From Candidatus Altimarinota bacterium (GTDB taxonomy: Bacteria > Patescibacteriota > Gracilibacteria > 1-14-2-50-48-13), in contig JBKBWQ010000001.1 of assembly GCA_046314355.1 (NCBI GenBank), positions 544,001-608,000 on the forward strand: a stretch of DNA of 64,000 nt, written 5' to 3'. Shown here piece after piece: positions 271 through 62,610 of the stretch. Made by a program: the position numbers and the translations under genes. Position 1 is the stretch's first letter. Each line of letters opens with the position of its first letter. The notes beneath the pieces were generated by a model. The model did not search any database. It saw nothing but the letters and a program-made list of their open reading frames with translations, and was not told where the DNA came from.

Positions 271-380
271 AGTCATTGGGTGCACATAATTGGGCTCAAT
301 ATTTAACTAATTGAGCTCAATTACTGCAGCCTAATAATGTGCGCCCAATAATTGAGCCTAAATCATTGATCCCAATTACT
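271..380. repeat. ATTGAGCTCAAT-type palindromic array, copy 1
   Basis: ATTGGGTGCACAT-AATTGGGCTCAAT-..-AATTGAGCTCAATT-..-AATGTGCGCCCAAT-AATTGAGCCTAAAT-CATTGATCCCAATT. Confidence 0.9.
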
Positions 381-454
381 TTCTTACTCATTTACTCTCT
401 TACTTCCCCTCTACTCCCCTTGTTTTTCCTCTAAAAACCCTTATACTTGTTACA

Positions 455-608
455 GCCTAGAGTACACGTGCATGCTTATGCCCAATTTTCTCTACAAAAC
501 TACTTTAAGGGATGCTAATATCTGGTATGGCTGCGGTCATATCATGAGGTAACCCACTTGACTACCAGTCGAGGATAAGTAGCATAAGCCTCCCACGGTA
601 TTTTGGGT
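455..608 (+). ncRNA. rod-like small RNA, 6S RNA candidate
   Basis: Nested end pairing GCCTAGAGTAC/GTATTTTGGGT, CGTG/CACG, GCTTATGC/GCATAAGC around an A-rich centre; TATACT -10 at 442-447. Confidence 0.45.
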
Positions 609-627
609 ATCATTCATTACTATTATT

Positions 628-918
628 ATGCCAATCTCACATACAGTAAAACCAGAAGCAACTCTTGATTTTCACAGAAATCCAGGCGCAAATCCAGCAG
701 TTATAGAGGCGCTTGCAAGTGCTTTCCTAGAAGAATCAATTCATCAGAAAAAAAGCTATCTCCGTATCATTACAGGCAATAGCGCTATTGCTCCCCGTAT
801 CGAAGAGGGACTCCGTAAATATCTCTCAACTCATACAAGAGTCGCGGAGATCACATCAGTGGATCTCGAGAATGGAATGCTTCATGCATTAGATCTCTCA
901 ATTGAAAAAAGCGCCTAG
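628..918 (+). CDS. Smr-domain-like protein
   Basis: LDFH and LRIITG motifs of the Smr domain in a 96-aa ORF. Confidence 0.6.
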   Translation: MPISHTVKPEATLDFHRNPGANPAVIEALASAFLEESIHQKKSYLRIITGNSAIAPRIEEGLRKYLSTHTRVAEITSVDLENGMLHALDLSIEKSA

Positions 919-930
919 GCGCTTTTTTTG
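905..930. terminator. bidirectional intrinsic terminator
   Basis: A-tract-GCGCCTAGGCGC-T-tract between convergent genes. Confidence 0.8.
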
Positions 931-933
931 TGT

Positions 934-1197
934 TTAAAATGCAGATTCCATTCCAAAGGAAGGTGGAAGTCCTTTCAGTGTAGGTGCTGCATACATGCGA
1001 TCATCATCAGGATTGATTACTGATCCTGAGTTACTTTCCTGAAGCATATGAGCAAAGGACTCAGCATTCTGCTGCATAAGAGTCGCTTTTCCTGCTACTC
1101 CTGTCACTATAAATCCTAAGATCAGTGAAGAGCATAATGCCGCAACTCCAATAGCTATCCAAAGTGATGTATTTTGTGGTTTTGTGTAATGTAGCAT
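934..1197 (-). CDS. small membrane-anchored hypothetical protein
   Basis: One N-terminal hydrophobic helix; last gene of a minus-strand cluster. Confidence 0.65.
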   Translation of the reverse strand: MLHYTKPQNTSLWIAIGVAALCSSLILGFIVTGVAGKATLMQQNAESFAHMLQESNSGSVINPDDDRMYAAPTLKGLPPSFGMESAF

Positions 1198-1208
1198 AGG
1201 TATTTCTA

Positions 1209-2861
1209 TTAATTTTTGTTGTTTAAAATCATATATCCCTTATGAGTGGTCTTATCATATTTGTAAATAATGCCTCCAGGTAAACTTCCACTCTCAGCAT
1301 TATATAATTTTTTGACAATTGCGCGCTGAAGCAGTAGTATAGCTTCTCTCTGGCGCATTCGTTCATCATTGGGTTTGCCAGTAGATTGTGCTTCAGGTCC
1401 AGTGACTTTGATCTCACCATTATCCATAAGCACTGCTTTCAGAGGATACTTAGCATCCGAAGAAAGAGTTACTTCTTCAGCTGGTTTCATAGTTTTTGTA
1501 TTTATACTTAAGGATGCCAAAGTAACTTCTTTTATAGCTGGAGAGGCTTCTTTATTATTAGTTTGTTTTGCAAGGACAGGTGGTTTAGAAGCTTCTTTTT
1601 TATTAATTACAACTCCCTTCTCTGCTTCCTTTGCTCCGGTTATTCCTCCTTGTACACTTTCCTTCCCACTCTCCGTTACACCATTGCCAGCACCTATTGT
1701 ACCTGTCATATTCGTTGGAGATTCACTTTTGACAGTTGCTTTCTTCACTCTCACTACTACACTATTCGTCAGCGCAGCAAGATATACTTCATCATCTTTA
1801 GCTAATCCTAGGGCATCTTTGATAACACTCTTATCTTTATTTTTTGCAAGAAAAGCCTGTCCAGATTTTTGATCCTTTGAAGTGAGAGGAATTGTATATG
1901 TCTCCATTCCCGGAGGAATACGCAGATAAGCAACCGTACCATCTTTTAGTTTCATTCCGACTACATTCTTTCCCTGGACAATGAGATCTGTTGCGGAGAT
2001 AGCAGCCACAAGGTCTTTACCTGATTTTGGATCACCTTGTTTCACCGTTCCCTTATAAATTATAAACTCTTTAGCCCCCATCTGCTTCTTTAAATCATCA
2101 ATATTATTGCTCATAGGAATACTTGTTTCCTTTGCCCCACGTAATGTCCCATCTTTTACATCAAATCCTAGAGCTTTAAGTTTATTTGCATCTGCTTTCA
2201 TCTCATTAGGTAGCTCAGAGGCTTGAATTTGCTTAACAGGATTTTCAATTTTATCTTCACTTGTTTTTATATCTTTTTTATCATCTATCTTTTCATCTGG
2301 ATTTGCTTTCTTATCTCCCTCCCCACTCTTCACATCTTTTTTAGGATCATTAGGTACTGTAAGGCTGCTGATTAAACTTTCTAAAGTCTTTTTATTTTTA
2401 TTAATATCTGTCAGATTGTCACGGATTTTCACTGCGTTAGTTTCTACGACTTTCAATGTCTGCTCTCTTATACCCTTTGCATTCAGACCATTTACCGCGC
2501 GTTCAAATACATTTGCATTGTCTGCCAGATAAAGACCTTTCGATGCTGTATCAATATCTCCGATAATCTTTCCGTAAGTTTCAAGCTTCTCACTATAGTT
2601 CTTCAAAAATTCCGCAGCTTTCGTCTGATCACCTATCTCAGCCTTAAATGATGTAGGAAAGTCTTTTGAATTCTTAACCTTTATTTGAGCATCATTAATT
2701 TTCTTCTGCAAGTCTCCAATTGCTGTGGCATTATTCTCTTTTAGTTTTTTAAAAACAGCATCAAAACTCTCCTGCGAATCTATAAGATTCTTTTTCTGTA
2801 CTTTATCGACAGAACCTGAGTCCTTTAATCCTAAATCCTTGATATCTGAAATTTCTGCCAT
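1209..2861 (-). CDS. hypothetical Lys-rich protein
   Basis: 550-aa ORF, coiled-coil-like N-terminus, no recognised domain. Confidence 0.8.
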   Translation of the reverse strand: MAEISDIKDLGLKDSGSVDKVQKKNLIDSQESFDAVFKKLKENNATAIGDLQKKINDAQIKVKNSKDFPTSFKAEIGDQTKAAEFLKNYSEKLETYGKIIGDIDTASKGLYLADNANVFERAVNGLNAKGIREQTLKVVETNAVKIRDNLTDINKNKKTLESLISSLTVPNDPKKDVKSGEGDKKANPDEKIDDKKDIKTSEDKIENPVKQIQASELPNEMKADANKLKALGFDVKDGTLRGAKETSIPMSNNIDDLKKQMGAKEFIIYKGTVKQGDPKSGKDLVAAISATDLIVQGKNVVGMKLKDGTVAYLRIPPGMETYTIPLTSKDQKSGQAFLAKNKDKSVIKDALGLAKDDEVYLAALTNSVVVRVKKATVKSESPTNMTGTIGAGNGVTESGKESVQGGITGAKEAEKGVVINKKEASKPPVLAKQTNNKEASPAIKEVTLASLSINTKTMKPAEEVTLSSDAKYPLKAVLMDNGEIKVTGPEAQSTGKPNDERMRQREAILLLQRAIVKKLYNAESGSLPGGIIYKYDKTTHKGYMILNNKN

Positions 2862-2868
2862 AATGGTA

Positions 2869-3198
2869 TTATTTAAGTATACTTCCTAACATTGCATCAG
2901 CTTCATTTTTAGCAGCATCATCGCTTACTGTCTCGATTTGTTTTACTAAATGCTGCTTTTCTATTGGAATTTCAGAAGCAACTATATTTACTGTATCTTG
3001 AAGTAAGGATGTATTCTGTAGCTCAAATTCTCCATTCTGAACCATTAAGTTTCTGCACTCAGCAAGAATAGGCTCTGCCTCTATAGAATTCAGCTCACCA
3101 GAAAGCTCCCGCTCTCTTAAAATCTGCAGAGTGGCATTGTCTACTACTCCATAACTCTGGATTTCATCTGTAATCGGTGTTTGAGACGCCATGATCAT
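2869..3198 (-). CDS. hypothetical acidic protein
   Basis: 109-aa ORF ending 7 bp before the next gene. Confidence 0.7.
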   Translation of the reverse strand: MIMASQTPITDEIQSYGVVDNATLQILRERELSGELNSIEAEPILAECRNLMVQNGEFELQNTSLLQDTVNIVASEIPIEKQHLVKQIETVSDDAAKNEADAMLGSILK

Positions 3199-3256
3199 AA
3201 AAAATGATATATCATAGAAGTATACCAGATATGAGCCTTTTTTAGCAATAAACCAA

Positions 3257-4315
3257 TTATTTATTCATTGCATCCACCATAAGCTGCTGAGCTATATTTC
3301 CTGCTATTACCTTCATCTTGCTTTTATCTTTCAGCATTATGTCCAAATCCCACTTTACCACATCTTTCATTATTACATCTTTACTCAGGTTAATCCCTGT
3401 TTTCAATCCAGGAACTGCAAATGTACTTTTACTAAGATGCAGTTTCATACTTGGAAGACTTGGCATGAGATAGCCTAAGATCTCACCTACAAATCTTGCA
3501 AAGGGATAAATCTCGTCCTTAGAAAGTGCTGATAAGGACTTATTAAGCGACTTCTTGAGAGTATTAAATAAAACAGGCATTGCCTCACTTAATCCTTCTA
3601 TGACATTTACCATTAAAAGAGGATCCTTCAGCAGTCTTAGGATTTCAATATTATCCTCAAGGTTTTCAGTAAGTCCAAATACAAGTCCCTGAGCATAATC
3701 AGGTAAATGCTTCGTGGGAATGAAACTACTCTCTGTCAGCAGTGATTCCCGCATTAAATTATTTTGTATAATCTCGCTTGCCATGCCTTTCACATAGATA
3801 CTTCTCGTCACTACTCCATCAAGAGATAAGGTAGGAGAATGAATATTAAGTAAAGTGAGTCTTGCATTATTGACTGACCTGTCGTCTGCCGCTGTATCTT
3901 TATAATTTTTTAAGCCGAAGTTCAGCTTTTTTACCAGCACATCACTAAAATAATCTAAAAGACCCTGCTGTATATCTGTCGTGGTTGATTTTCCATTGAG
4001 ATAAGAATTCATCTTTGCAAAGTAGGGATTGGCAGATGAATAGGCAAAGTATGAAGACAGAATCTGTTTTGCATTATTTTTCGCCCCCAAAGCATTGAGA
4101 CTCGTTTTCCCAGTTCTTTTTACAAGCCAAAGTGAAATAGCAGACTCTGTGTAGCCTAATAAAATCTTATCTAAAGCAGTATTTGCTGCCTGAGGATAAT
4201 TTGCCGGCACCTTTCCTGACATATCTATGGGTATATGAGAAGGCAGCAGCTTTTCCTGAGTCTTGTGAGATGAGACCGGAGTATTATAATCAAATTTTTG
4301 ACCTTCAAATCCCAT
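3257..4315 (-). CDS. hypothetical protein
   Basis: Long ORF; start placed at ATG 4315 (MGFEGQ) downstream of the groEL terminator. Confidence 0.75.
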   Translation of the reverse strand: MGFEGQKFDYNTPVSSHKTQEKLLPSHIPIDMSGKVPANYPQAANTALDKILLGYTESAISLWLVKRTGKTSLNALGAKNNAKQILSSYFAYSSANPYFAKMNSYLNGKSTTTDIQQGLLDYFSDVLVKKLNFGLKNYKDTAADDRSVNNARLTLLNIHSPTLSLDGVVTRSIYVKGMASEIIQNNLMRESLLTESSFIPTKHLPDYAQGLVFGLTENLEDNIEILRLLKDPLLMVNVIEGLSEAMPVLFNTLKKSLNKSLSALSKDEIYPFARFVGEILGYLMPSLPSMKLHLSKSTFAVPGLKTGINLSKDVIMKDVVKWDLDIMLKDKSKMKVIAGNIAQQLMVDAMNK

Positions 4316-4366
4316 AGGCAAAGAAAAAGATATCTTTGTATTATAGCATGGGAAGTGTAATTGAGT

Positions 4367-4405
4367 AAATAAGGGAGAGCTCAAGCGCGAGCCTCCCTTA
4401 TTTTT
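4367..4405 (-). terminator. terminator downstream of groEL
   Basis: AAATAAGGGAG..CTCCCTTATTT inverted repeat. Confidence 0.6.
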
Positions 4406-4490
4406 CTAAATTCTCGTCCTTATTTTTGCAAGGATAAGGATGATGATTAGGATAAGAATTGAGGGGGTCTCTCCCCTAATTCATCACCAA

Positions 4491-6152
<1,662 letters not shown>

Positions 6153-6214
6153 TTAGGAATTGAGGTCATTAAATAATTAATTACTAATTACTTAATGACT
6201 TATTTACTAGAGCT

Positions 6215-6505
6215 CTACACCTCCTTTGCAATAATTCCGTCCTGTCTCAAAACAATCAGTTCCTCTCCTTCCATTTTAAAATTATCTCCAGCGTATTTCT
6301 TATAATAAACAATGTCTCCTACGGAAACATGCATTTCGATCACCTTATTGTCTCCTACAACTCCGCCGGGACCAACTGCAACTACTTCTCCTTTATTAGG
6401 CTTTTCCTTTGCAGAATCTGGGATATAGAACCCGCTCTTTGTCATCTCCTCAGCAGCAAGCTGCTTGATAATGACGTAATCGCCAAGTGGCTGAAGCTTT
6501 GCCAT
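6215..6505 (-). CDS. groS: co-chaperonin GroES
   Basis: LQPLGD, AKEKP, GEVVAVGPG; directly upstream of groEL. Confidence 0.98.
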   Translation of the reverse strand: MAKLQPLGDYVIIKQLAAEEMTKSGFYIPDSAKEKPNKGEVVAVGPGGVVGDNKVIEMHVSVGDIVYYKKYAGDNFKMEGEELIVLRQDGIIAKEV

Positions 6506-6567
6506 ACGTATTTATAGTACAAAAATAAATGTAATAAATATTACATAGAATAGCTATTGAGAAACAA

Positions 6568-6594
6568 TTAGCACTCGATGCAATATAGTGCTAA
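6568..6594. promoter_or_regulatory. CIRCE element (HrcA operator)
   Basis: TTAGCACTC-N9-TAGTGCTAA, one mismatch to consensus; adjacent TTGACG-17-TAATAT promoter (6622-6594). Confidence 0.92.
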
Positions 6595-6729
6595 TATTAT
6601 CTGAGTTGGAGTTTACCGTCAAGAAAAATCCTTAAGATTTTATTGATGAATAACTCCTCTTAAATTTGCAGAAAAATTCTATAGATAGATCACTAAACTA
6701 CCTACTACTTTATTATACAAATATTGTAT

Positions 6730-7182
6730 TTACCTTATTCCTAATTCGTCTTTAATCTCCTGATCAATAGTGTCAGTATGCTTCCCTCCATTCTTATATG
6801 ACCTTTTTTTATGCTTTTTCGATAACTCTAGGTGAGTAATGACAGGACTTTGTAATTCACACTTCACTACCTTCCAATCCCGGTAATCTTCAATGAATTG
6901 AAATCTGTATCTCAATTCAAAAACCTTCTCCTCAGATAATAGATTGAATTTTTTTACATATAAAAACAGCTGTTCCACATAGGTTCTCAACTCCAATGTC
7001 TGCTCATGAGTAAATGGCCATGAAGTAGTGTCAATAACTGCTCTTTCACTTAATTCATTAGCTATATCATGCTTAATTTTATGGATCTTTATACTTACTA
7101 TTGTATCCGAATCTGAAAGAATATTTTTCATACTCAGTTCTTCTTCTACAAATGGCACCTCCTTATTTTCTCCTAAATGCAT
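6730..7182 (-). CDS. hypothetical protein
   Basis: ORF; likely start MHLGENKE at 7182. Confidence 0.65.
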   Translation of the reverse strand: MHLGENKEVPFVEEELSMKNILSDSDTIVSIKIHKIKHDIANELSERAVIDTTSWPFTHEQTLELRTYVEQLFLYVKKFNLLSEEKVFELRYRFQFIEDYRDWKVVKCELQSPVITHLELSKKHKKRSYKNGGKHTDTIDQEIKDELGIR

Positions 7183-11295: not shown

Positions 11296-11543
11296 AATGA
11301 CCTCCTGCTTTTAAATACATACATTAGTTTGATTTCAATGATCACTTCCGACAAAGTAATCAAAGGAATCTTTATTACTCTAATCTGAATACAACCAATA
11401 TAAGTGTTTTTCGTCAATGTACAAGAAAAAGAGACGCATAACTGCGTCTCTTTTTTTATATAACCTTTATAGTCAATATCTTCATGCTACGCTTATCCCT
11501 AATGCTTGAGTCAAACCTAGGATAAGGATGAGGATAGGGTTTT

Positions 11544-11917: not shown

Positions 11918-11995
11918 GTAATTGGGCTCATATCATTAGGCTTCAATGACTGAGCTCAATTATTGGAGCCTAATGATTGCGCCTTTAATTATCAA
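11918..11995. repeat. ATTGAGCTCAAT-type palindromic array, copy 2
   Basis: TCATTAGGCTTCAATGACTGAGCTCAATTATTGGAGCCTAATGA, near-perfect palindrome centred on GAGCTC. Confidence 0.9.
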
Positions 11996-19326: not shown

Positions 19327-19404
19327 GGAAAGTAATTGAGTAAATGAGTAATTAAGTAATAAGGGAGGCTCAAGGTTGAGTCTCTCTTTTTTTGCAAGAT
19401 ACGA

Positions 19405-21297: not shown

Positions 21298-21389
21298 AAA
21301 ACTTAAAAAGAGTCTCAACTGAGACTCTTTTTCATTATATTTCTAATTTGCTCAATTACTTTCCTCCCATCGCGTTTGACGCGACGAGC

Positions 21390-21944: not shown

Positions 21945-22039
21945 AAAAATATATTAGAAAAACAGATAGTTTTAGGGTACTGCTATTTAGGACTCTTTGC
22001 AAGAAAAGTAATAGAGTAAGAAAGTAATTTAGTAAGAGA

Positions 22040-22128
22040 GGAATTGGCATATATTGTTAGAGGTGCAATAATTGAGCTAAATTACTTAATTATTGTGCCC
22101 AATTATTCGAGTCCCAATTACTTGAGCC
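22040..22128. repeat. ATTGAGCTCAAT-type palindromic array, copy 3
   Basis: AATAATTGAGCTAAATTACTTAATTATTGTGCCCAATTATTCGAGTCCCAATTAC. Confidence 0.8.
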
Positions 22129-25177: not shown

Positions 25178-25259
25178 TGTCATTCCGGGCCTGACCCGGA
25201 ATCTAAAAATATAGATAGCAATCCAAGCTTTAAGATACCGGATCAAGTCCGGCATGACA
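25178..25259. repeat. REP-like doublet (GTCATTCCGG family)
   Basis: TGTCATTCCGGGCCTGACCCGGAATCT ... AGATACCGGATCAAGTCCGGCATGACA as an inverted pair. Confidence 0.8.
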
Positions 25260-28295: not shown

Positions 28296-28322
28296 TGTCA
28301 TTCCGGGCGTGATCCGGAATCT
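28296..28322. repeat. single REP-like unit (GTCATTCCGG family)
   Basis: TGTCATTCCGGGCGTGATCCGGAATCT, near-identical to 25178-25204. Confidence 0.8.
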
Positions 28323-28343
28323 TAAAGGATGGTTAAGCATACT

Positions 28344-28421
28344 GGGCTCGAAGGATAAGGATGAGGATAAGGGATAAGAATCAAGGAGACATCCCTATCC
28401 TTAATTCTTATCCTAATCCTT
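28344..28421. repeat. GGATAA simple-repeat inverted array
   Basis: AGGATAAGGATGAGGATAAGGGATAAG...CCCTATCC..CTTATCCTAATCCT; related tracts at 4431-4460 and 11491-11540. Confidence 0.7.
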
Positions 28422-33120: not shown

Positions 33121-33190
33121 AGTAATTAGACTCAATCATTAAGTAATTGAGCTCAATTATTGTAGCCCAATTATTCCATTACTTAATTCC
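33121..33190. repeat. ATTGAGCTCAAT-type palindromic array, copy 4
   Basis: GTAATTAGACTCAATCATTAAGTAATTGAGCTCAATTATTGTAGCCCAATTA. Confidence 0.88.
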
Positions 33191-33202
33191 TCCCTTATTT
33201 CT

Positions 33203-33750
33203 AAAAAAAGAACCCCATGCTTTGGTAAGCTCTGGGATTCTATTCATCTCATAGGCAAGAAAAATAGAATCTTTCCTTTGTGATGTGTGTTTTTGTTTGA
33301 GTGACAACTGCTCAAAAGTGTAATTCATGCTGTGCTTCGGTCATATACCTCTCCTAATGCCGAGGAGTGACTGATCCCTCGAAGGGATCTGAACCCCGCC
33401 TCGTCTCATATACGAAGTGGAAGAAAATCCAGGTGTAATGATCGGAAGCAAAGCTCGTCAGAATTAATGAGAAGAGGGATGTCATCTCCCTTCTCTTTTT
33501 CGCAAAGCAGTGAAAAATGAATATTCCTTAAATACTTAAGAACTACTCGTTACTCACTACTTACATCTTATTGTAAAGGATCAAATGTAGGACTCCGGCC
33601 GGAAGTCTTTTGCTTTCCTTACTTCTTGTAGGACTTCGCTCTCCGTGGCAGGAAGGAAATCTAAATGGTAAGAATTGCTTTTTTGTTTTTTAAAATTTGT
33701 TTTGGTTTAGTCTTCTTTTTGTTTTGTTTGAAGCTGTTGTATTTTTAAGC
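33203..33750 (-). ncRNA. candidate long structured RNA, locus A
   Basis: No ORF of 60 aa or more; many hairpins; promoter TTGCTT/TAAGAT (33786-33759); terminator 33203-33241. Confidence 0.45.
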
Positions 33751-33874
33751 TTCATAGGATCTTAATCTTTTTAAAAAATAAAGCAAGAAGAAGATGAGTG
33801 ACAAAGTATGTTTATTGTTTTAAAACATGATTATTTATTATAAAATGTATTTACTGTAAACAGATTACGTGAAA

Positions 33875-33955
33875 GTAATTATATCATTGGACTCAATAAT
33901 TTGGCGCACATTATTAGGCTCAATCATTAAGGCTACAATTATTGAGCCCAATTGC
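33875..33955. repeat. ATTGAGCTCAAT-type palindromic array, copy 5
   Basis: ATTGGACTCAATAATTTGGCGCACATTATTAGGCTCAATCATTAAGGCTACAATTATTGAGCCCAATT. Confidence 0.88.
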
Positions 33956-40830: not shown

Positions 40831-40981
40831 TATATAAATTTATTAAGATAACGTAAGATTTGTACCCCTAATTCTTATGAAATTAAGGGGATGAAGTCAA
40901 GCAAACCCAGTTGTAGTGATGAACATTTCTTTTCTCTTCACTAAAGCTTATTTGAAGAGTCAGGCAGGGGCTATTCTACTC

Positions 40982-42642: not shown

Positions 42643-42822
42643 CACGCGTTTGACGCGGTAGAATCTAATGTAAAGACTAGTTATTAGGTTCTAGAAGAAA
42701 AGTATATTAGGTTCTGCCACTAGTTCCTGATTATATACTAGTCACCGTAGAAAGAATAAAAGAGTACGTATGAGCTACTAGTCTCTAGTAACTTGCACCA
42801 GGCTCTAGTCCCTACGAAGTCC

Positions 42823-48477: not shown

Positions 48478-48788
48478 GGTGTATTATTACGTAGAAAACA
48501 AAAAATATACGGACGAATGGTACTTGAAATAGTGGGAGAATGCAAGAGAATGTGAGGGGCTCGAGTAATTAAGTAATTAGTAATTAAAACATATATAATA
48601 ATTACTTTATTTATCAGTGCCTATTCGGTGAAATTATGAGTATGAGAGTTAAATTTTGTATCACCAAAAGGCATCTTTTTCGCTCTTATTTGTGTACAAT
48701 ATAAGTATATTCAGTCTATTTTTACGCTCAAGCTGAAAATATTTTTATAAAAATTATAGTACACTGTATATACATTAACTCCACCTGC

Positions 48789-49706: not shown

Positions 49707-49802
49707 GGAGAAATAGGAAATAGGTTGCACCTAATTCTTATTTCCTATTTCCTCTAATTCTCTTTACACTTCCTATATTTCCAGTACAATTCTCCTGTGT
49801 TT

Positions 49803-52956: not shown

Positions 52957-53442
52957 ATGCAGTTTAAGATTCCTCAAAATATAGATATTGAAGAGAAAAT
53001 TCTTCCTTTTCTGACAATCAAACAGCTGTTTATTTTGCTGGGTGGGGGTGCGGTTGCGTATCTCATTTATATTGCGTCAGTAGGGCGTTATGATCCAAGT
53101 ATTTACCTTATTCCAGTCATACTCATAGTTGTTGTAACGGTGCTTATCGCATTTTTTAAAATGGAGAATATCACCTTTATCAAGCTCGTACTGCTTATGA
53201 TGGAGTCTCTTATAAATCCTCGTACAAGAGTTTGGTTCCACTATGCTGAGCCACTTTCTCCTTTAGATGAGTATGATATTCTTCTGCAGCTAGAGCAAGA
53301 AGGTACTAAGAAATCTCCTCAACCTGTCCAAAATCAGAATGATCTTTTACATAATCTCGAAAATCTTACTCAAGTCGTTGATACATCTCAAAATTTTCTT
53401 TCAGAAAAACCTACTTATCAGGATGAACGTCCTTCATCATAA
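52957..53442 (+). CDS. PrgI family protein
   Basis: FKIPQNIDIEEKILPFLTIKQL, two TMs, PRTRVW. Confidence 0.8.
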   Translation: MQFKIPQNIDIEEKILPFLTIKQLFILLGGGAVAYLIYIASVGRYDPSIYLIPVILIVVVTVLIAFFKMENITFIKLVLLMMESLINPRTRVWFHYAEPLSPLDEYDILLQLEQEGTKKSPQPVQNQNDLLHNLENLTQVVDTSQNFLSEKPTYQDERPSS

Positions 53443-53453
53443 TTTTCACTACT

Positions 53454-54155
53454 ATGGCTGATTCAGTCAAAAAAAATACATCCTCTTCAGCAAATTCTAC
53501 TATACGGTATCTTCCCTTTTCGGAGATTCACGATGATACACTTATTTTAAAAGATGGAAGTCTTCGAGGTGTAGTAGAGGTTGGCAGTGTAAACTTCAGC
53601 TTAAAATCAGAGGAGGAGCAAAATGCCATTATTTACTCATATCAGAATTTCCTAAATTCTCTAGAATTTCCTGTACAAATTCTTATTAAATCCAAAAAGC
53701 TCGATCTTGATGATTATTTAGATAAGTTGAGAGTAGTAGCCGAACAGCAGACAAATCCTCTCTTAAAAAAACAGACAATCGACTATATTCAGTTTATTGG
53801 AAAGCTTATTGAATATGCAGATATCATGGAGAAGAAATTTTATATCGTGATTCCTTACGATACGCTCACAGGTGGTCAGAAGAAAAATATGTTTCAGCTC
53901 TTTCTCTCTAGTATCAATCCTGATGATTCAATCTCAAAATATAAATCCCGAAAGAAAGAATTCGTGGATTACAAAAAAGGTCTCTTACAGAGAATGAGTA
54001 TTATACAATCAGCTTTAGAGAGCTGCGGGCTGACTACAAAGATACTAACAACCAAAGATCTTATTCAGCTCTTCTACGGTATCTATAACCCTCTTACAGC
54101 GATGGATCAGAAACTGAAGGAGATAAATATCTTGGAGCCCCAGGCGGCAAAATAG
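53454..54155 (+). CDS. TraC/VirB4 N-terminal-like protein (no ATPase)
   Basis: SVNFSLKSEEEQNAI, FLNSLEFPVQI, KFYIVIPY, FYGIYNP. Confidence 0.7.
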   Translation: MADSVKKNTSSSANSTIRYLPFSEIHDDTLILKDGSLRGVVEVGSVNFSLKSEEEQNAIIYSYQNFLNSLEFPVQILIKSKKLDLDDYLDKLRVVAEQQTNPLLKKQTIDYIQFIGKLIEYADIMEKKFYIVIPYDTLTGGQKKNMFQLFLSSINPDDSISKYKSRKKEFVDYKKGLLQRMSIIQSALESCGLTTKILTTKDLIQLFYGIYNPLTAMDQKLKEINILEPQAAK

Positions 54156-54160
54156 GACTC

Positions 54161-54225
54161 ATGTAATTGGATTCAATAATTGAGCTCAATTACTTAATTA
54201 TTGAGCCCAATTACTAAATTACTCT
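54161..54225. repeat. ATTGAGCTCAAT-type palindromic array, copy 6
   Basis: GTAATTGGATTCAATAATTGAGCTCAATTACTTAATTATTGAGCCCAATTAC. Confidence 0.9.
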
Positions 54226-54291
54226 TCAAAAAAAGCACCTCTTATTTCTAAGAAGTGCTTTTTATTGAACGCAATATTCTTCCTTTCAGAA

Positions 54292-55037: not shown

Positions 55038-55048
55038 TTAAATAAAAA

Positions 55049-55543
55049 TTACAATTTCTTTCTTAGCACAAAGAAATGGAGGATATATATAGGCAAGAAG
55101 ACGATAGTGAGTACCAAGGCAAGCAAGTTACTCTTTTCGAAATCAATGGCTTTCTGCTCTTCGATCTGTACTTTACGTGAATTCTTACAATTTTCAGTGA
55201 CACTTGTCTTTTCTTGAGGTGAAAGGGTTGCACCGCTTGCAGTCGTCATATCCTTTGAGGGACCATTTCCGTAAGCGTATGGATTGTATTCACAATCATT
55301 CAGCATATACATATATGAAGAATCAAGGGCCTTAGGAAAAAAATATCTACCGAGTATATTATATGCTCCTGTTGCAAGTCCTATAAGGAAAACTCCAAGA
55401 CTTAAAAGTGATACTACATAAATGTAGAGCCCTTTCAGTACATGCATTTTATCTTCCTTTATATGAACCATGGCAGCAGATATAAATATAATTATAATAA
55501 GAACTATAAGCAAAGCCATTCCGATTGAGAAAAGCCCTCCCAT
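55049..55543 (-). CDS. membrane protein inserted between rplK and rplA (DUF5671-like)
   Basis: LYIYVVSL, two Cys, LPIYILHF. Confidence 0.7.
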   Translation of the reverse strand: MGGLFSIGMALLIVLIIIIFISAAMVHIKEDKMHVLKGLYIYVVSLLSLGVFLIGLATGAYNILGRYFFPKALDSSYMYMLNDCEYNPYAYGNGPSKDMTTASGATLSPQEKTSVTENCKNSRKVQIEEQKAIDFEKSNLLALVLTIVFLPIYILHFFVLRKKL

Positions 55544-55544
55544 A

Positions 55545-55982: not shown

Positions 55983-55998
55983 AGAAAATAGATGTTAT

Positions 55999-56035: not shown

Positions 56036-56047
56036 TAATAAAGTATA

Positions 56048-56830
56048 TTATAACGATCGGAAAAACTCATTAAAGTCCTCTTTTAGGCTAGATACTACGT
56101 CCACTGCGTAGTTAGCTCCTGTTTTGGACTCTACTACTATACGCAATAATTCTGGTTTATCAATATTATTATAATAAAACCCTCTTCTGCCAAATGCAGC
56201 ATCGGAGACCGTTATCTTTGGATTTTGAAGTACTCTTTGTGCTAGATCTCTCAAGAATAAGTTTACATTTCTTATAGTAGGGTCGACTTTCTTGATCTCA
56301 TAGAGAAATCCTACCTGATTACCATTTTTCTGCAGAATATATCTTTCTACTTTTACTGCTGTAGCATATGGGGTCAATGTTTCATAAAGTCTATTCTCTT
56401 TATATTCTGTCTTCACTACCAGATAATTTTTTCCTAATGTTGTCTGAGCGTATGCCTGCAAAGAAGCCTGTGAGACTGGATTTGTCGTTGTACCATTATT
56501 AGTACTTGTGGGAACTACAGCATTTGCATTTTGATTAGCTACCATGGCAGCATTCTGATTTGCCTGCGGTTTTGTAGTATTTAAATTTTCCTGTACTGGG
56601 ATGCTAGTTACAACATTTTGATTAACAACAGCAGGAACTATGTTTTCATTTACTGGCACCTGTAGGGCTACATTCTCATTTCTTGTACTTTCTTCACCGC
56701 CAAAAGCCAACTGAATTGCAGCTGGCTTTTCTTTATGTAGGCTCAAATATATTCCTCCAGATATGATACAGAGAAAAAATAACACAATTGTGAGTACTTC
56801 TCTAGCTAGACTTCCGGAGCGTGAAGACAT
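56048..56830 (-). CDS. membrane-anchored protein with Asn/Thr-rich linker
   Basis: N-terminal TM, NQN repeats; lies between nusG and rplK. Confidence 0.8.
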   Translation of the reverse strand: MSSRSGSLAREVLTIVLFFLCIISGGIYLSLHKEKPAAIQLAFGGEESTRNENVALQVPVNENIVPAVVNQNVVTSIPVQENLNTTKPQANQNAAMVANQNANAVVPTSTNNGTTTNPVSQASLQAYAQTTLGKNYLVVKTEYKENRLYETLTPYATAVKVERYILQKNGNQVGFLYEIKKVDPTIRNVNLFLRDLAQRVLQNPKITVSDAAFGRRGFYYNNIDKPELLRIVVESKTGANYAVDVVSSLKEDFNEFFRSL

Positions 56831-56846
56831 ATGAAACGGCTTAAAA

Positions 56847-57392
56847 TTATTTCTTCTTTATCTGCGTAAAATCAAGTTCTACTGGTGTTTCTCTTCCGAA
56901 CATACTTACAAGTACCTCAACTTTACCCTTATTATCATCAATTTCACTAATCGTTCCTTCATATGTATTAAATGGTCCTTCTGTAATAATAACCATTTCA
57001 CCCATCTCAAAGTCAATTTTGAATGAATTATCCTTATCTCCCATTCGTCTCTTGATCATCTTGAATTCTTCAAGAGACACAGGAACTGGAATATTTCCAG
57101 AACCTACGAATCCAGTAACATTTGGAGTGTTTCGTACAACATACCAAGATTCATCAGTTACATTCATTTCCACAAGTACGTATCCTGGAAAAATTCTTTT
57201 TTTCTCAGATTTTTTTTCTCCTTTTTTAATCACGATCTGTGTCTCCTCAGGGACAACTACATCGAAAATAAAATCCTGCATATTGTAAGTCTCGATTCTT
57301 TGTCTGATCGCTCTTTCTACAGCGTATTCGTATCCTGCGTAAGTATGTATCGCATACCAGTTGCGTCCTGTATTTTGTAATTGCTTAGCCAC
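56847..57392 (-). CDS. nusG: transcription termination/antitermination factor NusG
   Basis: WYAIHTYAGYE, FPGYVLV, TPNVTGFVG, KOW motif, FGRETPVEL. Confidence 0.99.
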   Translation of the reverse strand: MAKQLQNTGRNWYAIHTYAGYEYAVERAIRQRIETYNMQDFIFDVVVPEETQIVIKKGEKKSEKKRIFPGYVLVEMNVTDESWYVVRNTPNVTGFVGSGNIPVPVSLEEFKMIKRRMGDKDNSFKIDFEMGEMVIITEGPFNTYEGTISEIDDNKGKVEVLVSMFGRETPVELDFTQIKKK

Positions 57393-57421
57393 TTTTTTAA
57401 ATGGGTAGGTATATAAAAGAC

Positions 57422-57736
57422 CTAGTTACTAGGTGTAGTAGTCGGTGTCGTAGTCGGAGTGATCTCTACATTAGATGTCCCTTCTCCTGTTGCCGTAGTC
57501 TGTACGTCTGTAGGAAGAATCGGAGTAGTGTTCTGTGTAGTTGGAAGTGAGTTTGAAGCTGGAAGAGCGCTATAGATTGACTTCATTCCATAGTCTACAA
57601 GAGTAGCTATTGCTGAGAAGATCAAAACAAAGACAACTACATTCACAGTATGCTTGATAAGCTCATCTGTTTTTGGCCATGAAACTTTGCGTATTTCACT
57701 CCAAGAATCTTTAAAGAACTGAATTAGTGTACCCAC
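57422..57736 (-). CDS. secE: preprotein translocase SecE with Thr/Pro-rich tail
   Basis: EIRKVSWP plus TM; upstream of nusG. Confidence 0.93.
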   Translation of the reverse strand: MGTLIQFFKDSWSEIRKVSWPKTDELIKHTVNVVVFVLIFSAIATLVDYGMKSIYSALPASNSLPTTQNTTPILPTDVQTTATGEGTSNVEITPTTTPTTTPSN

Positions 57737-57848
57737 GGCGTAAGGATAAATTACAAGTTAAATTGAAAAAGCGTAAAAGTGCTTTACATGCAGTGTCTAT
57801 TATAGAGAAGTGGGATAAGACTGCAAGGGGAAATTAGGAATGGAACTC

Positions 57849-57966
57849 GGTAATTTGGCACACATAATTGGACTCAATAATTAAGTAATTGAACTCAATT
57901 ACCGTAGCCCTAATTATAAGAGTCCAATTATGAGCCCTGAATATTGAGCCAAAATTACTAATTACT
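57849..57966. repeat. ATTGAGCTCAAT-type palindromic array, copy 7
   Basis: AATTTGGCACACATAATTGGACTCAATAATTAAGTAATTGAACTCAATT...GAGTCCAATT..ATTGAGCCAAAATT. Confidence 0.88.
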
Positions 57967-58029
57967 TCCTCACTTCTCTTGCCTAAACCTTATCTCTCGC
58001 TATAATTCATCATGCATCTAAATCTGCAT

Positions 58030-58115
58030 GCCGAAATGGCGGAATTGGTAGACGCGCACGACTCAAAATCGTGTACATTCTATGTGTGAGGGTTCGATTC
58101 CCTCTTTCGGCACCA
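58030..58115 (+). tRNA. tRNA-Leu(CAA)
   Basis: Anticodon loop CTCAAAA, variable arm, GGTTCGATTCC, encoded CCA. Confidence 0.97.
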
Positions 58116-58362
58116 TTCTTCGCTGCTAGACGCAGCTACGAATGGCACAGCCAGAATGGAATGATACTTCGTAAACGAAGTATTTTATTGTATAGCGAAG
58201 AATGTCCCTCGTAGCCTACACCTGAATGGTAAGCTGCTTGTTCATCATGGCGAAGAGGGGCTCTAAAAATTAAGTAGAACTATGTTCGATACTTAACCTC
58301 ATACTTTTTTTGATAACTCACCATATCAGCTCACTTGCCACTCACACTCCTGAGCCTTGCAT

Positions 58363-58881
58363 CTATTTGCCATAATACCAAAACTCTAGCTTATCACCGG
58401 TTTCTTCTGTATCTCTTATATGTATCTGCTTCGTGAAGTGCTCAGGAATGTCAGGAAAAAATAGGTCACAGTCATAATTTTTTTGAATCCTAGTAAGATA
58501 GACTCCATCTATGTCCGGCAACTCCATCACCGTATGATAGAGTTGAGCTCCGCCAATAATAAAGATTTTTTCTACAGTCTGGTATTCTCTGTATAAAACA
58601 TGTTCAAGAGAATCTACTACAGTTGCACCCAAGAGGTGCAGATTCTTGTTTGATGATAAAACAATATTCTCTCTACCTGGAAGAGGTCTGAACTGATCTG
58701 GTATCGTTTCCCAAGTCTTTCTACCCATGATAACAATATTATGCTTAGCCGGATCAAGCGTCTCAGAAGTAATTTGCTTAAAAAACTTCATATCACTTGG
58801 ATAATGCCATGGAATTCCCCCTTCTTTTGCGAGACCGCCTATTTTATCTACGGCGGCGATTACGTATATCTTTGGTTTCAT
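58363..58881 (-). CDS. folA: dihydrofolate reductase
   Basis: IPWH.PSDMKFF, IMGRKTWE, RPLPGR, IIGG, CDLFFP. Confidence 0.97.
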   Translation of the reverse strand: MKPKIYVIAAVDKIGGLAKEGGIPWHYPSDMKFFKQITSETLDPAKHNIVIMGRKTWETIPDQFRPLPGRENIVLSSNKNLHLLGATVVDSLEHVLYREYQTVEKIFIIGGAQLYHTVMELPDIDGVYLTRIQKNYDCDLFFPDIPEHFTKQIHIRDTEETGDKLEFWYYGK

Positions 58882-58882
58882 T

Positions 58883-59698
58883 TTAAACGGCTATTGGAAA
58901 TTTGATAAAAGGTTCATGTGTATATCCCTCTAGTGAAAAATCCTCAAATTTTAATTCCCAGAAAGGTTTATTTGCAATTTTGAGAGTAGGCAGACTATGA
59001 GGCTTTCTTTCAAGCTGGGTTTTAATACCCTCAACCTGATTAATATAAATGTGTGCATCTCCAAGTGTATGTGTAAATATACCTGGAGTCAAACCACATT
59101 CCTGCGCAATCATGCTCATCAAGAGTGCATAGCTCGCAATGTTATATGGAACCCCCAGAGGAATATCTGCACTTCGTTGATAAAGCTGGCAATCCAGTCT
59201 TCCCTTCACTACATAAAACTGAAAGAATGCATGGCATGGGGGAAGAGCCATTCTATCAATATCAGCTACATTCCATGCACTTACAATAATCCTTCTGCTA
59301 TTTGGATTCTTTTTAATAGTATCTATCACTTCCTGAATCTGATTAATATGAGATTTTGTATACTGTCCCGTTTTATCATCCGGAGTAAATTTATCCCATT
59401 TAGTCCACTGGTATCCATAGATTGGACCAAGATTTCCCTCTTTATCTGCCCAGTCATCCCAAATCTTTGTGTATTCATGCAGTCCCTCATGAATGTTTGT
59501 TGAACCTTTCAGAAACCAAAGCAACTCTCTAAGAATAGCATCAAAGCTTACTTTCTTCGTAGTCACTATAGGAAATCCTTGCCGTAGATCATATTTACTC
59601 TGCGTTCCAAAGATAGAAATGGTACCTGTGCCAGTACGATCCCCTTTCTCTTCGCCAAACTTCAATACTTCGCGGACAAGATCGAGATACTGTTTCAT
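58883..59698 (-). CDS. thyA: thymidylate synthase
   Basis: DRTGTGT, LPPCH, YQRSAD, DAHIY. Confidence 0.99.
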
Positions 59699-60109
59699 AA
59701 ATATGGGTAGTGAATAATTAATTAATATTAACTACATTTTTTGATCAAAGGCAAAGAATTCTGGTATTTTCTAAAATCTCTGTTTAAAGCCCTAAGAGCC
59801 AAGGTCCGATGCCTATATTTACAAAGTGTTTACTAAAGCCAAGTTTTAATAGTACTTTCTCTAGGTTTAGAGATTCGTATCTGTTTCTTACAGCTTATAT
59901 CCAGTAATATTGACATTTTTATATAGAAGTATATAAGTCTTTAGTTCTTTGAAATCTAGAAATTGCAGTAAGTTTTGAATGGTTCTTTGAAAGGTGTAGA
60001 GATACGACTTTAAGAAGGAATGTTCATGCCCTTGCTGCAATGAAAAGCAGTATAGTACTTATTATTATATTAAAATTTGCCAGATCGAACTGGAGAAAGA
60101 AGGAAAAGT

Positions 60110-60763
60110 ATGAGTAATTTGAAGAAAGTCATCGTTACAACTATTGGTTTGGGAATTGTTTTTATTGGCGGTTGTACACAGCCACCAATTACTGCTAAGC
60201 AAGCTACTAGTGAAATCTCTTCACAGAAAAGCACAGATAAACCAAAGGAAGGAGGCATAATTGTCAGCTTTCCTTTCGAGAAATTTCAAAAGGAATATGA
60301 TAAAAAAATAGCAGAGGATGAGGTTGAGAGAGAGAAAAAGGCAAAGTCTAATGGAGATAAGATAGTTTTTATGATGAGTCCTGATTCTGCAAAGAATACT
60401 ACCATTATAAAAATTAAGAATGTTGGCGACGAGAATGTGTATTTAGAGGATGTTACATTCCTTTTTTATGCAGAAAAAACCACATTTTTAAAAAAAATTG
60501 AAATTCTTGATAAAGAAAAGATAGTTCTGGCATACGAAAATATTGCATTAGGTGAGAAAGGAACTCTAATAGAAATGCGTCCACACCATCTCATCCCAAA
60601 AGATGAGGTAAAGGAACTTACTCTTAGATATACAAGAAACAGCGATAGTGATACTGAAGTGATTGTGCTCTACCAGTCTGACTATTCAGTTATCGGTAAT
60701 AGCACTGGAATACTTTCACGTAAAAAAGAAAGTGAATACATATATGTAGGTAATTCACTATAA
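60110..60763 (+). CDS. hypothetical lipoprotein
   Basis: MSNLKK..IGGC lipobox; long leader with two GTTCTTTGAAA sites. Confidence 0.75.
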   Translation: MSNLKKVIVTTIGLGIVFIGGCTQPPITAKQATSEISSQKSTDKPKEGGIIVSFPFEKFQKEYDKKIAEDEVEREKKAKSNGDKIVFMMSPDSAKNTTIIKIKNVGDENVYLEDVTFLFYAEKTTFLKKIEILDKEKIVLAYENIALGEKGTLIEMRPHHLIPKDEVKELTLRYTRNSDSDTEVIVLYQSDYSVIGNSTGILSRKKESEYIYVGNSL

Positions 60764-60839
60764 AAATTGACCGCAAGGGTATTACAAACTGGCCATAATT
60801 AATTTTATGGTCTTTTTCTCTATTCCTCCCTAAACACAT

Positions 60840-61305
60840 AAAAGTCGCCATTTGGTAATGGCGAACTTTTTATTTTTGTTTCGTTTGGAGTGCGAGTTTT
60901 GGCGCCCCAAGAAACGTATAGAAGTCGACGGAACCTCTCTGTTGTAGATCTCAACCTTACTTCGGTAATACAATGTCCCGCATCCCAAGGGTCGCTATAG
61001 CGAGATTTGATGAGCCGATTTTAGACTTGCTCCAAAGAGGAAGACCAGCCGCACCGCATCTCAGCAGTGGTGGAGGAGCAATTGGGAGTCACCCAAACGT
61101 CCAGTTTCATAAAGTAGAGACAAATGAGAGCAAGATGGAATCCCTACGGGAGAGAGCCTACATCTCTGGCTCAGAAAGTTTAGTGCCTCTCAGTGAACCT
61201 TGGTAGATTATGAGTGGTACGCTTCCGTGAGACACGATGAGATGAATAGGCCATCTATCTTTCATTTATCCCTGCTTGTGTTGTTAAAGATCTTTTTTGT
61301 TTTGA
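60840..61305 (-). ncRNA. candidate long structured RNA, locus B
   Basis: GC-richer than flanks, many hairpins; TTGATT-17-TAAGAT promoter; boxA-like GATCTTTAACAA; terminator 60840-60870. Confidence 0.45.
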
Positions 61306-61387
61306 TTTTCATAGTATCTTAATCGATTTAAATAAATTAATCAAATAAGAATCATTTACACATACTGAAATTTATTTTAAAAGAACA

Positions 61388-62401
61388 TCAGCCTGCATTT
61401 TCCCAAATACTGCGCATGCGAATACTACGCTTAAAATCTCTTTCAAAAAGCTGTTCCTTCACGGTATTTACAATTTGCATGTCGTTTGTACCTAGATTGA
61501 ATTCTTTGTTTCGTTTCATGCTTCTATATGTTGCATTTGCAGAACCAAGAGAAACATATTCATTATCAATCAGATATACCTTTAAGTGATTGAGTGTTTT
61601 TCCATAAATAAATATATCTATATCAAAATATCTCATCCACTTCACAGTAACAGCATGCTGAAGCCTAGTAATAAGATGATTACTAACCTTTGGGACTATG
61701 ACTTTCACATCTATCCCTCGTTTTTTAGCATCGATCAGTGCCCTTATCAGCCTTATATCAGTAATATACGGTACTTCGATAAAAATGTTTTTCTTTGCGG
61801 ACCTAATCCGCTTATTGAGATCTTCTTCAATGTCGTTTTGCTTAAAATCAGTCACGAGCATGTCATAATGATTATTCCCCCATTCGAGTTTATATGAAGA
61901 AACCTCGCCATCCACCCACTCGGCGAGAAAAATACGTTCAAATCCAGCAGCAATGAGAGGTTCTCGTATATGAATAAAAATATCATGCCATTCAAATTGG
62001 TAATGGTCCCCGATATTCATTCCTCCAGTAAATGCTTCCTTTGAGTCTATTACAATAATCTTTCTATGATCAAGCTGGAAGTGGAAAGGATTTGGTTCTC
62101 CCGCATGTACGATCTGCACTCCTTGAGTTTTCAAAAAACGCAGCAGCGCCATTCGTCCAGTGATTGCTCTCCAGTTGAATAAGGAAAAGTAATATGTACC
62201 AATTTGATCATACATTACCTTCACATCTAAACCTTCTCTTGCCTTTTTTGCGAGAATCAAAGCCATATCCCATCCAGTCTTGTCATCAGCAAAGATAAAC
62301 ATTTCAATATAAATAGAATGCTCTGCCTGCTCCAGCCGTTCAAAAAGGGTCCTGAATGCAGAAATGCCGTCCACCAAAAGCGTAAAATGTACAGGAAGCA
62401 T
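61388..62401 (-). CDS. phospholipase D / cardiolipin synthase-like (no N-terminal TM)
   Basis: Two HKD motifs, HRKIIVID and HLKVYLID; GGMNIG, GSAN. Confidence 0.92.
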   Translation of the reverse strand: MLPVHFTLLVDGISAFRTLFERLEQAEHSIYIEMFIFADDKTGWDMALILAKKAREGLDVKVMYDQIGTYYFSLFNWRAITGRMALLRFLKTQGVQIVHAGEPNPFHFQLDHRKIIVIDSKEAFTGGMNIGDHYQFEWHDIFIHIREPLIAAGFERIFLAEWVDGEVSSYKLEWGNNHYDMLVTDFKQNDIEEDLNKRIRSAKKNIFIEVPYITDIRLIRALIDAKKRGIDVKVIVPKVSNHLITRLQHAVTVKWMRYFDIDIFIYGKTLNHLKVYLIDNEYVSLGSANATYRSMKRNKEFNLGTNDMQIVNTVKEQLFERDFKRSIRMRSIWENAG

Positions 62402-62481
62402 GCATGAATTTAGGAATAGTATGGTGAGTATAGCGAAGATGAATGATATTGGAAAGAAGGAATAAAGGAGGACGTGGACTC

Positions 62482-62610
62482 GGTAATTGGGCGCACATCA
62501 TTGAGTAATTGAGCTCAATGATGTGCGCCCAATGATAGGAGCCAAATTATAAGAGCCCGCCAATGAGCTCCAAATTATTGAGCCCAAATTACTAATTACT
62601 CAATTACTTT
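62482..62610. repeat. ATTGAGCTCAAT-type palindromic array, copy 8
   Basis: AATTGGGCGCACATCATTGAGTAATTGAGCTCAATGATGTGCGCCCAAT...ATTGAGCCCAAATT. Confidence 0.9.

Follow-up and report, generated by a model that had tools for sequence, protein, structure and literature searches.

What are the short palindromic arrays that recur between genes in the genome of a Candidatus Altimarinota bacterium, and how did they come to be scattered there? We addressed this question in a 64,000-nt window (contig JBKBWQ010000001.1, positions 544,001 to 608,000 of the forward strand), taken from a host contig of 1,619,055 bp. A preliminary description had reported eight intergenic arrays of 13-14 bp units in this window (a1 to a8), and reading the intervals directly confirmed that all eight are present. 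They total 740 bp and occur at 8 copies per 64 kb, or about one per 8 kb. Genes were defined by our own crude calls based on open reading frames (ORFs), which assign 54,848 bp to coding DNA and leave 13.9% of the window intergenic. All eight arrays are intergenic, as had been claimed, an outcome with a chance expectation of 0.139^8 = 1.4e-7. Array a5 is included in this count because the ORF that overlaps it begins at a TTG within the array and likely has its true start at an ATG at ~34060.

The repeated units are clearly enriched. ATTGAGCTCAAT, allowing up to two mismatches, has 20 matches in the window, compared with 7.07 ± 2.59 in dinucleotide-preserving shuffles (n = 100), none of which reached 20. 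The half-site ATTGRGC has 40 matches, compared with 19.34 ± 3.78 in shuffles (0 of 100 reached 40). Of these, 26 lie in the 740 bp of arrays and 2 elsewhere between genes; the 54,848 bp of coding DNA hold the other 12. The preliminary description had asked whether the motif might be equally frequent in coding or shuffled sequence; instead, the half-site is far denser in the arrays than in coding DNA. All six window matches to the junction CAATNATTG fall inside arrays. A further "trace" had been noted at ~21344, and there is something at that position, but it amounts to only one GCTCAATTACT half-unit.

One polar element in eight diverged copies

Aligning the arrays as they stand in the window gave a ragged result. 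Pairwise local alignment nevertheless found every pair to be related: scores ran from 20 to 59, whereas shuffled arrays gave 9.0 ± 1.7 and never more than 14. Some pairs aligned better in opposite orientation (a4/a6, 40 vs 33; a1/a3, 42 vs 29) and others in the same orientation (a1/a7, 59 vs 31; a7/a8, 50 vs 25). A common alignment was made after flipping a3, a5 and a6. The consensus of all eight arrays, with 26 invariant columns, reads GTAATTGGGCTCA-ATAATTA-AGTAATTGAGCTCAATTATTGnAGCCyAATTAT..GAGyCC. It defines a polar core of ~60 bp that is carried by five copies in the plus and three in the minus orientation. Mean pairwise identity over the core is 0.79 (range 0.64-0.88; 28 pairs with 52-59 shared positions per pair). 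A 61-position profile hidden Markov model (HMM) of the core matched every array with E values of 5e-18 to 3e-13 in its preferred orientation. Since these eight copies were also what the profile was made from, the E values do not count as independent support for membership. In the reverse orientation, scores were 27-36 bits lower for seven copies and 10 bits lower for a2. Searching the 64-kb window with this profile returned no further copy at E < 1.

Four parts make up the core: a GTAA-tagged module, an ATTAAGT linker, a central palindrome (AGTAATTGAGCTCAATTA) and a GNAGCCYAAT module. At its center lies a perfect 14-bp palindrome, AATTGAGCTCAATT. Optional outer modules, such as ATTGGGCGCACAT and its complement, lengthen the palindrome in a1, a5, a7 and a8. 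Copies differ by point changes, by insertion or deletion of whole 13-14-bp modules and by the presence or absence of outer modules, and the alignment gaps are mostly module-sized. All of them end in terminal inverted repeats (GTAATTGG...CCAATTAC), and none contains an ORF. The arrays had been described as roughly self-complementary; we found inverted repeats in all eight, and they fold better than shuffles on both strands. Self-complementarity within arrays (21-40) is no higher than complementarity between arrays (20-42). We considered co-evolution of the two arms and rejected it on this basis; the values fit independent decay from a palindromic master.

These results do not support the picture of combinatorial arrays. 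It is literally true, as the preliminary description had it, that no two arrays share unit order, but once orientation is corrected the order of the core modules is common to all eight. A variable GC core joined by a conserved AT junction was not borne out either: 27 of 158 alignment cells (17.1%) are changed at GC-consensus positions and 48 of 335 (14.3%) at AT-consensus positions, which is no real contrast. Changes at GC positions run toward A or T in 24 of 27 cases. All eight arrays match one 61-position polar core, with pairwise scores well above the shuffled maximum, and diverged copies of one dispersed element do not point to the repeat-writing mechanism that had been suggested. From the shared core, the shared polarity and the above-shuffle scores we conclude that the arrays are diverged copies of one dispersed element. 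Their common descent, polarity, occurrence in both orientations, restriction to intergenic DNA and palindromy are what the data show.

The element appears to extend beyond the core. AGTAATT, a repeat absent from the preliminary description, has 51 matches in the window against 18.57 ± 4.18 in shuffles. It stands in the plus orientation to the left of arrays and in the minus orientation to their right. Runs with a 7-8-nt period include TTACT to the right of a1 (376..404), AGTAA to the left of a3 (22007-22035) and AGTAA/TTACT to the right of a8 (62589-62608). The orientation of these runs indicates that the element continues outward with a purine-rich left arm and a pyrimidine-rich right arm. 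Three other sites carry the flanking motif. An AT-rich palindrome in the groES-groEL spacer (6135..6214) has AGTAATT/AATTACT ends and one AATTGAGGTCATT unit, and is possibly a degenerate relative. A mini-palindrome of the form (AGTAATT)x3 ... AATTACT (48564..48606) lacks GC-core modules and could represent the flanks alone or a proto form. The third is an AGTAA run (19331-19359) that precedes a canonical terminator. All three may be degenerate or proto forms of the element, and the core profile detects none of them.

Likeness to known repeats and a possible origin

We compared the element to repetitive extragenic palindromes (REPs), REPINs and bacterial interspersed mosaic elements (BIMEs). 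REPs are described in PMC3733652 as 20-40-bp palindromes tagged GTAG or CGTC and often paired in opposite orientation. The same source places them mainly between unidirectional or convergent genes and presents REP-associated tyrosine transposases (RAYTs) as the enzymes thought to mobilize them. The arrays share several of these features. They are short imperfect palindromes that are strictly extragenic, occur at ~1 per 8 kb in both orientations, and contain neighboring units that oppose one another and fold into larger hairpins, with a mosaic unit content as in BIMEs. Each hairpin-forming module is preceded by a conserved GTAA, a counterpart to the GTAG tag that PMC3733652 reports for REPs. 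The high-copy, extragenic character of REPs is thus present (8 copies in 64 kb, 8/8 intergenic), as is the tag-plus-palindrome layout, but the GTAG or CGTC tag and the unidirectional or convergent location are not. No GTAA family appears in PMC3733652. The modules here are also AT-rich and 13-14 bp long, where REPs are G+C-rich and 20-40 bp; the copies share a longer polar core of ~60 bp; and the host phylum lies outside those surveyed for REPs. Judged by their sequences, then, the arrays resemble REPs without being canonical members. This agrees with the earlier statement that they are not a canonical REP: the tag is GTAA instead of GTAG or CGTC, and no described family was matched in Rfam, in a literature search with a 12-mer or in the PMC3733652 survey.

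Miniature inverted-repeat transposable elements (MITEs) offer a second comparison. The pneumococcal BOX and neisserial Correia elements, examples of MITEs with internal modularity, are non-coding, ~65-130 bp long, bounded by terminal inverted repeats, intergenic and dispersed in both orientations. They also have a variable number of internal modules between conserved ends and can adjoin promoters, and the arrays are similar in all these respects. The terminal inverted repeats, the lack of coding capacity and a length under ~300 bp are those of a MITE. The arrays differ in having no definable target-site duplication and no parent insertion sequence (IS) with matching ends in the window. Their divergence (79% identity) exceeds that of typical recently active MITE families, and their flanks are periodic AGTAA/TTACT repeats. 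A third parallel is with IS608, whose TnpA cleaves at the tetranucleotides TTAC and TCAA according to PMC3201880. That system is based on hairpins and has tetranucleotide cleavage sites, and TCAA and TTAC both occur in the conserved junction GCTCAATTAC and recur in the TTACT flanks. The ends of IS608, however, are asymmetric and flank tnpA/tnpB, whereas the array element carries no genes and forms a single palindrome throughout. In AT-rich DNA the shared tetranucleotides may be a coincidence; as a lead only, it would point toward an HUH/Y1 enzyme.

Descent of all eight copies from one dispersed element is a hallmark of REP/BIME/MITE-type repeats. On balance, and by a modest lean, we favor the view that the arrays are copies of a lineage-specific, non-coding and non-autonomous REP/BIME/MITE-like repeat that spread in trans, was kept in permissive intergenic sites and changed by module slippage. 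A trans-acting enzyme, with its gene in another part of the genome, would carry copies to new intergenic sites; the most attractive candidate would be an HUH/Y1 transposase (RAYT or IS200/IS605-type) acting on tetranucleotide-tagged hairpins. They would survive where they are harmless, either between divergent promoters or in the interval from a stop codon to the next promoter or terminator. Copies would come to differ by point mutation and also because whole 13-14-bp modules slip or are deleted, events that the repeated AAT-N-ATT junctions would favor. Mobility, the enzyme and any effect on the host are features that we infer only. The family is apparently undescribed, yet it appears to belong to a familiar class, that of small dispersed palindromic intergenic repeats.

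Several results weigh against this view. No transposase, RAYT, reverse transcriptase, IS, Cas or Nop-domain protein was found among 86 ORF translations from the window, which were named with NCBIfam, followed by a Pfam scan of the 56 proteins that NCBIfam left unnamed or was not given. No parent IS of a MITE was found in the window, and a7 had no match in phage and plasmid collections. We could read no unambiguous direct duplication of a target site, at ends that are palindromic and flanked by AGTAA/TTACT repeats. At 79% identity the copies are fairly diverged, so any mobility may be ancient. The spacers that carry arrays are divergent in four of seven cases, tandem in two and convergent in one, a small sample that differs from the unidirectional or convergent location reported for REPs in PMC3733652. 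A divergent location fits a role in promoter regions at least as well as it fits neutral survival. The core profile, built from these eight copies, informs on polarity and on the lack of other copies but is circular with respect to membership. Finally, we scanned species-representative genomes with a 20-base gapped pattern, AATTGAGCTCAATN{5,35}GCCCAAT, which 4 of the 8 window arrays match. The scan returned 23 single hits in 23 unrelated taxa; none is surrounded by a cluster of units, and most look like ordinary coding sequence. With only these unrelated matches, it provided no empty site or presence-absence polymorphism. No close relative carrying the exact AATTGAGCTCAATN{5,35}GCCCAAT pattern is found among the species representatives, a result that would miss diverged relatives.

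Gene settings and alternative readings

GroEL from the window has homologues of 75-85% identity on other contigs, and its nearest named relatives are Candidatus Peregrinibacteria proteins at 67-69% identity, values that place the host, on sequence grounds, as a sparsely sampled Peregrinibacteria-like member of the candidate phyla radiation (CPR). Housekeeping genes in the window include groES/EL, aspS, miaB, gatCA, pgk, prfA, secE-nusG-rplKA, rplJL and thyA-folA. Many of the other proteins have no family assignment; those that do include LCP, ComEC, DUF4012, LemA, PrgI and VirB4-like proteins, and a gene for RNase III is present. Every 4-kb bin has a negative GC skew (-0.003 to -0.192), and the minus strand carries most of the genes, which indicates that the window falls within one replichore and contains neither origin nor terminus.

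The copies occupy diverse positions among these genes. The long form a1 (271..380, core 287-346, plus orientation, profile E 4.6e-18) has a leftward promoter-like site on one side (267-239) and, on the other, that of a 6S-like RNA (420-447). Two other long forms are also in the plus orientation. One is a7 (57849..57966, core 57865-57925, E 6.7e-16), which has the secE-nusG operon's upstream region on one side and the promoter-like site of a tRNA-Leu gene (57979-58006) on the other. The other is a8 (62482..62610, core 62483-62543, E 1.5e-16), which lies in a divergent spacer and holds a perfect 20-bp stem in which 62486-62505 pairs with 62514-62533. A single 944-bp divergent spacer has the short form a4 at its left end (33121..33190, core 33122-33174, plus, E 4.7e-15) and a5 at its right end (33875..33955, core 33889-33955, minus, E 2.6e-13), inverted relative to a4. 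Three copies adjoin stop codons. The short form a2 (11918..11995, core 11918-11983, plus, E 2.6e-15; nearly as good in reverse, E 2.5e-12) and a3 (22040..22128, core 22046-22105, minus, E 6.2e-14) begin at the first base after one. For a2, the gene on that side is a minus-strand gene for an 879-aa Ig-domain protein, and the promoter-like site TAGTCA-17-TATACT of the next gene follows; a3 abuts the stop codon of a peptidyl-prolyl isomerase gene (22129, minus strand). The compact form a6 (54155..54225, minus, E 1.5e-16) lies between a stop codon (54153-54155), which its core abuts at 54155, and a canonical bidirectional terminator hairpin (54230-54263). The start first given for a6, 54161, is 6 nt past the stop codon.

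A few neighboring features deserve mention in their own right. Rfam model RF00013 (6S RNA) matches 451-613 on the plus strand over its full length (model positions 1-187). The score is 35 bits against a gathering score of 46.4, with E 8.1e-06 in a 261-nt search; the match was unlisted in whole-window Rfam searches. It lies directly downstream of the site TTGTTT-16-TATACT (420-447), which was recognized by eye, and is probably a divergent 6S RNA gene. Between a4 and a5, 680 bp (33190-33875) are free of ORFs, with no stop-free frame longer than 57 codons, and contain a terminator-like hairpin on the plus strand (33474-33492). This interval may encode an unrecognized RNA. A RAYT remnant there was rejected because no stop-free frame exceeds 57 codons, a judgment made on frame length. 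A signal recognition particle (SRP) RNA at 33330-33500 was likewise dropped, as it had no Rfam support and Rfam returned nothing convincing for 33190-33875. Next to a6, the plus-strand interval 52957-54155 encodes a PrgI-family protein followed by a 233-aa ORF that is weakly similar to VirB4/TrsD conjugative ATPases. Being far shorter than a full VirB4, this ORF may be a piece of some type IV secretion system or of one related to competence. Two minus-strand ORFs that match no family, 164 and 260 aa long (55049-55543 and 56048-56830), are inserted among the genes of the otherwise conserved secE-nusG-rplK-rplA cluster.

We classified 45 spacers by hand from the crude gene set (11 divergent, 24 tandem, 10 convergent). 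Arrays are found in 4 of the 11 divergent spacers (a1; a4 and a5; a7; a8), 2 of the 24 tandem spacers (a2, a3) and 1 of the 10 convergent spacers (a6). The excess in divergent spacers (4/11 vs 3/34 elsewhere) is marginal (one-sided Fisher p = 0.05). Taken together, promoter-like sites show no enrichment in the window relative to shuffles. The preliminary description had placed a1 and a7 between the -35 boxes of divergent promoters. This holds best on the right of a7, which ends 12 nt from the -35 box of TTGCCT-16-TATAAT (57979-58006, upstream of tRNA-Leu), a site that passes the scan threshold; the only others to do so are the left-hand sites of a2 and a8. The left-hand site of a7 (TTGCAG-16-TATAAT, 57826-57799) and both a1 sites (TTGCTC-17-TATACT, 267-239, and the 6S-like site at 420-447) were read by eye and fall below it.

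These settings raise the question of function. The arrays might act in cis at the level of DNA, as a platform for the multimeric binding of some nucleoid-associated or regulatory protein, or as a cruciform that takes up the negative supercoiling arising between divergent, strongly transcribed promoters and so insulates them. Arrays 1, 7 and 8 stand 4-39 bp from outward-facing promoter-like hexamers, with a tRNA gene, the secE-nusG-rplK-rplA cluster and the 6S-like RNA among their neighbors. Arrays between divergent promoters are probably untranscribed, so any role there would have to be at the DNA level, and the perfect 14-bp palindrome is operator-like in form. The marginal excess in divergent spacers points the same way, but it concerns seven spacers only and is confounded by spacer length. 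The 13-14 bp module period is out of phase with the DNA helix, the AT junctions are not clearly better kept than the GC cores, and module number and order vary freely outside the core. Promoter-like sites in the window do not exceed shuffles, and no candidate binding protein was identified. We consider a DNA-level role unlikely, though it is the most interesting of the alternatives. The divergent, highly expressed promoters concerned would be those of the 6S-like RNA, tRNA-Leu and secE-nusG-rplKA. A bolder version, which we regard as rather improbable, combines function with mobility. The arrays would be a CPR-specific modular palindrome acting on DNA in promoter-proximal spacers, as a cruciform-forming supercoil buffer or insulator or as a multimeric platform for an architectural protein, and would be written or moved by an HUH enzyme that recognizes AT-rich hairpins tagged GTAA/TTAC, making them a third REP tag superfamily, in a phylum with none known so far.

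A role in RNA would instead make the element a hairpin of 3' untranslated regions or operon spacers, serving as a stabilizer, an RNase III site, a terminator lacking a U-tract or a small-RNA precursor. Such a role would suit the strong predicted folds (z from -1.95 to -6.79 for the plus strand, from -1.32 to -6.70 for the minus) and the position of a2, a3 and a6, which start 0-6 nt from a stop codon, the usual place of REP-type RNA hairpins. Pyrimidine-rich TTACT runs follow the hairpin on either strand, and an RNase III gene lies within the window. Folding energy shows no strand preference, however, and at least four copies (a1, a4, a7, a8), which have outward-facing promoter-like sites downstream of them, are probably not transcribed. 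In the consensus fold the first module pairs with the central palindrome, and none of its 15 pairs shows a compensatory change; the covariation term is positive, which is unfavorable, and a structured RNA supported by covariation was rejected. Canonical hairpin-plus-T-run terminators occur elsewhere in the window, and one stands directly beside a6, so that a6 is not needed as a terminator. Rfam searches of the whole window at gathering score returned three tRNAs only and no array. At E <= 1 the sole array match was a plant microRNA model (29.9 bits against a gathering score of 85), a chance hairpin resemblance. We think an RNA-level role very unlikely.

The least tenable reading is that of guide-RNA arrays, either CRISPR or tandem interspaced guide RNA (TIGR-Tas) arrays, and we regard it as effectively refuted. 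It draws on real parallels. The host is CPR-like, and CPR is a group for which PMC12045711 reports TIGR-Tas systems. The units are short, and one form of TIGR array has palindromic stem-loops (PMC12045711). Like TIGR arrays, the present ones are short-period, partly palindromic repeats in CPR that standard CRISPR finders would miss. As characterized in PMC12045711, however, a TIGR unit spans ~36 nt, in which two alternating 8-12-nt repeats are combined with 9-nt spacers, whereas the unit here is 13-14 bp. The other form places stems around two boxC-N9-boxD intervals beside a Nop-domain gene (PMC12045711; TIGRFinder rules, 2026 preprint). A boxC-N9-boxD interval pair, by the TIGRFinder definition, is present in none of the eight arrays, nor is RUGAUGA. 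Neither a Nop/Tas nor a Cas gene is among the 86 window ORF translations. The "variable" cores are 6-8 nt long, of few kinds and homologous between copies (79%), so they offer no diverse spacers, and the copies are single and scattered over 62 kb with no common locus. The TIGR period, its spacer diversity, the paired box C/D motifs and an adjacent Nop-domain gene are thus all lacking in the window. For CRISPR, the earlier exclusion stands: there are no identical 25-36-nt direct repeats with unique spacers of similar size, and the copies are homologous over their whole length.

Two other ideas were tried and rejected. The cores fit GRGCYC, and GAGCTC is a SacI site, but 18 of 27 GAGCTC and 26 of 47 GRGCYC sites are in coding DNA, so restriction sites of this kind are not confined to arrays. 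A reading as DNA uptake sequences was dropped because such sequences are also common within genes, whereas the half-site is rare in coding DNA (12 in 54.8 kb).

Other repeats, distribution and significance

The window contains further repeats that are separate from the array element. One is a second palindrome family of long, imperfect, purine-rich repeats of the GGATAAG/CTTATCC type, with a purine-rich 5' arm and a pyrimidine-rich 3' arm. Members at 4430-4490, 11516-11543, 28340-28421, 49707-49760 and ~40855-40895 lie mostly just downstream of stop codons, and 10 of 13 motif matches are intergenic by the crude gene set. A 22-nt hairpin, CATTCCGGGCnTGAnCCGGAAT, has two copies in separate spacers (25181-25202 and 28299-28320). 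The 13-mer CGCGTTTGACGCG also occurs twice, in identical form (21371-21383 and 42645-42657); one copy is 3 nt past the 3' end of tRNA-Ser(tga), and the other is in the spacer with the "trace" unit.

Searches beyond the window placed the array element in no described family. A blastn search of phage and plasmid collections, with a7 as the sole query of the eight arrays, gave no match. Among the literature matches listed for the 12-mer string, none was on bacterial repeats, judging from their titles. A search of the literature on palindromic or intergenic repeats in Peregrinibacteria and CPR found no such family. In the passages found, the Peribacteria genome paper speaks of no more than a single direct repeat region and some short repeats close to the replication origin.

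Bacteria of the CPR (Patescibacteria) have small, streamlined genomes, for which our literature searches turned up no family of dispersed palindromic repeats. In a genome of 1.6 Mb, a repeat found about once every 8 kb would be a considerable feature. The array family would open a way to study mobile-DNA activity, as well as the architecture of promoters and terminators, in an uncultivated lineage. If it is a decaying MITE-like family, it would be an ordinary feature, still useful for annotation and as a marker for strain typing or for caveats in assembly. If a matching HUH enzyme exists, the REP/RAYT system would be extended to a new tag and a new phylum.

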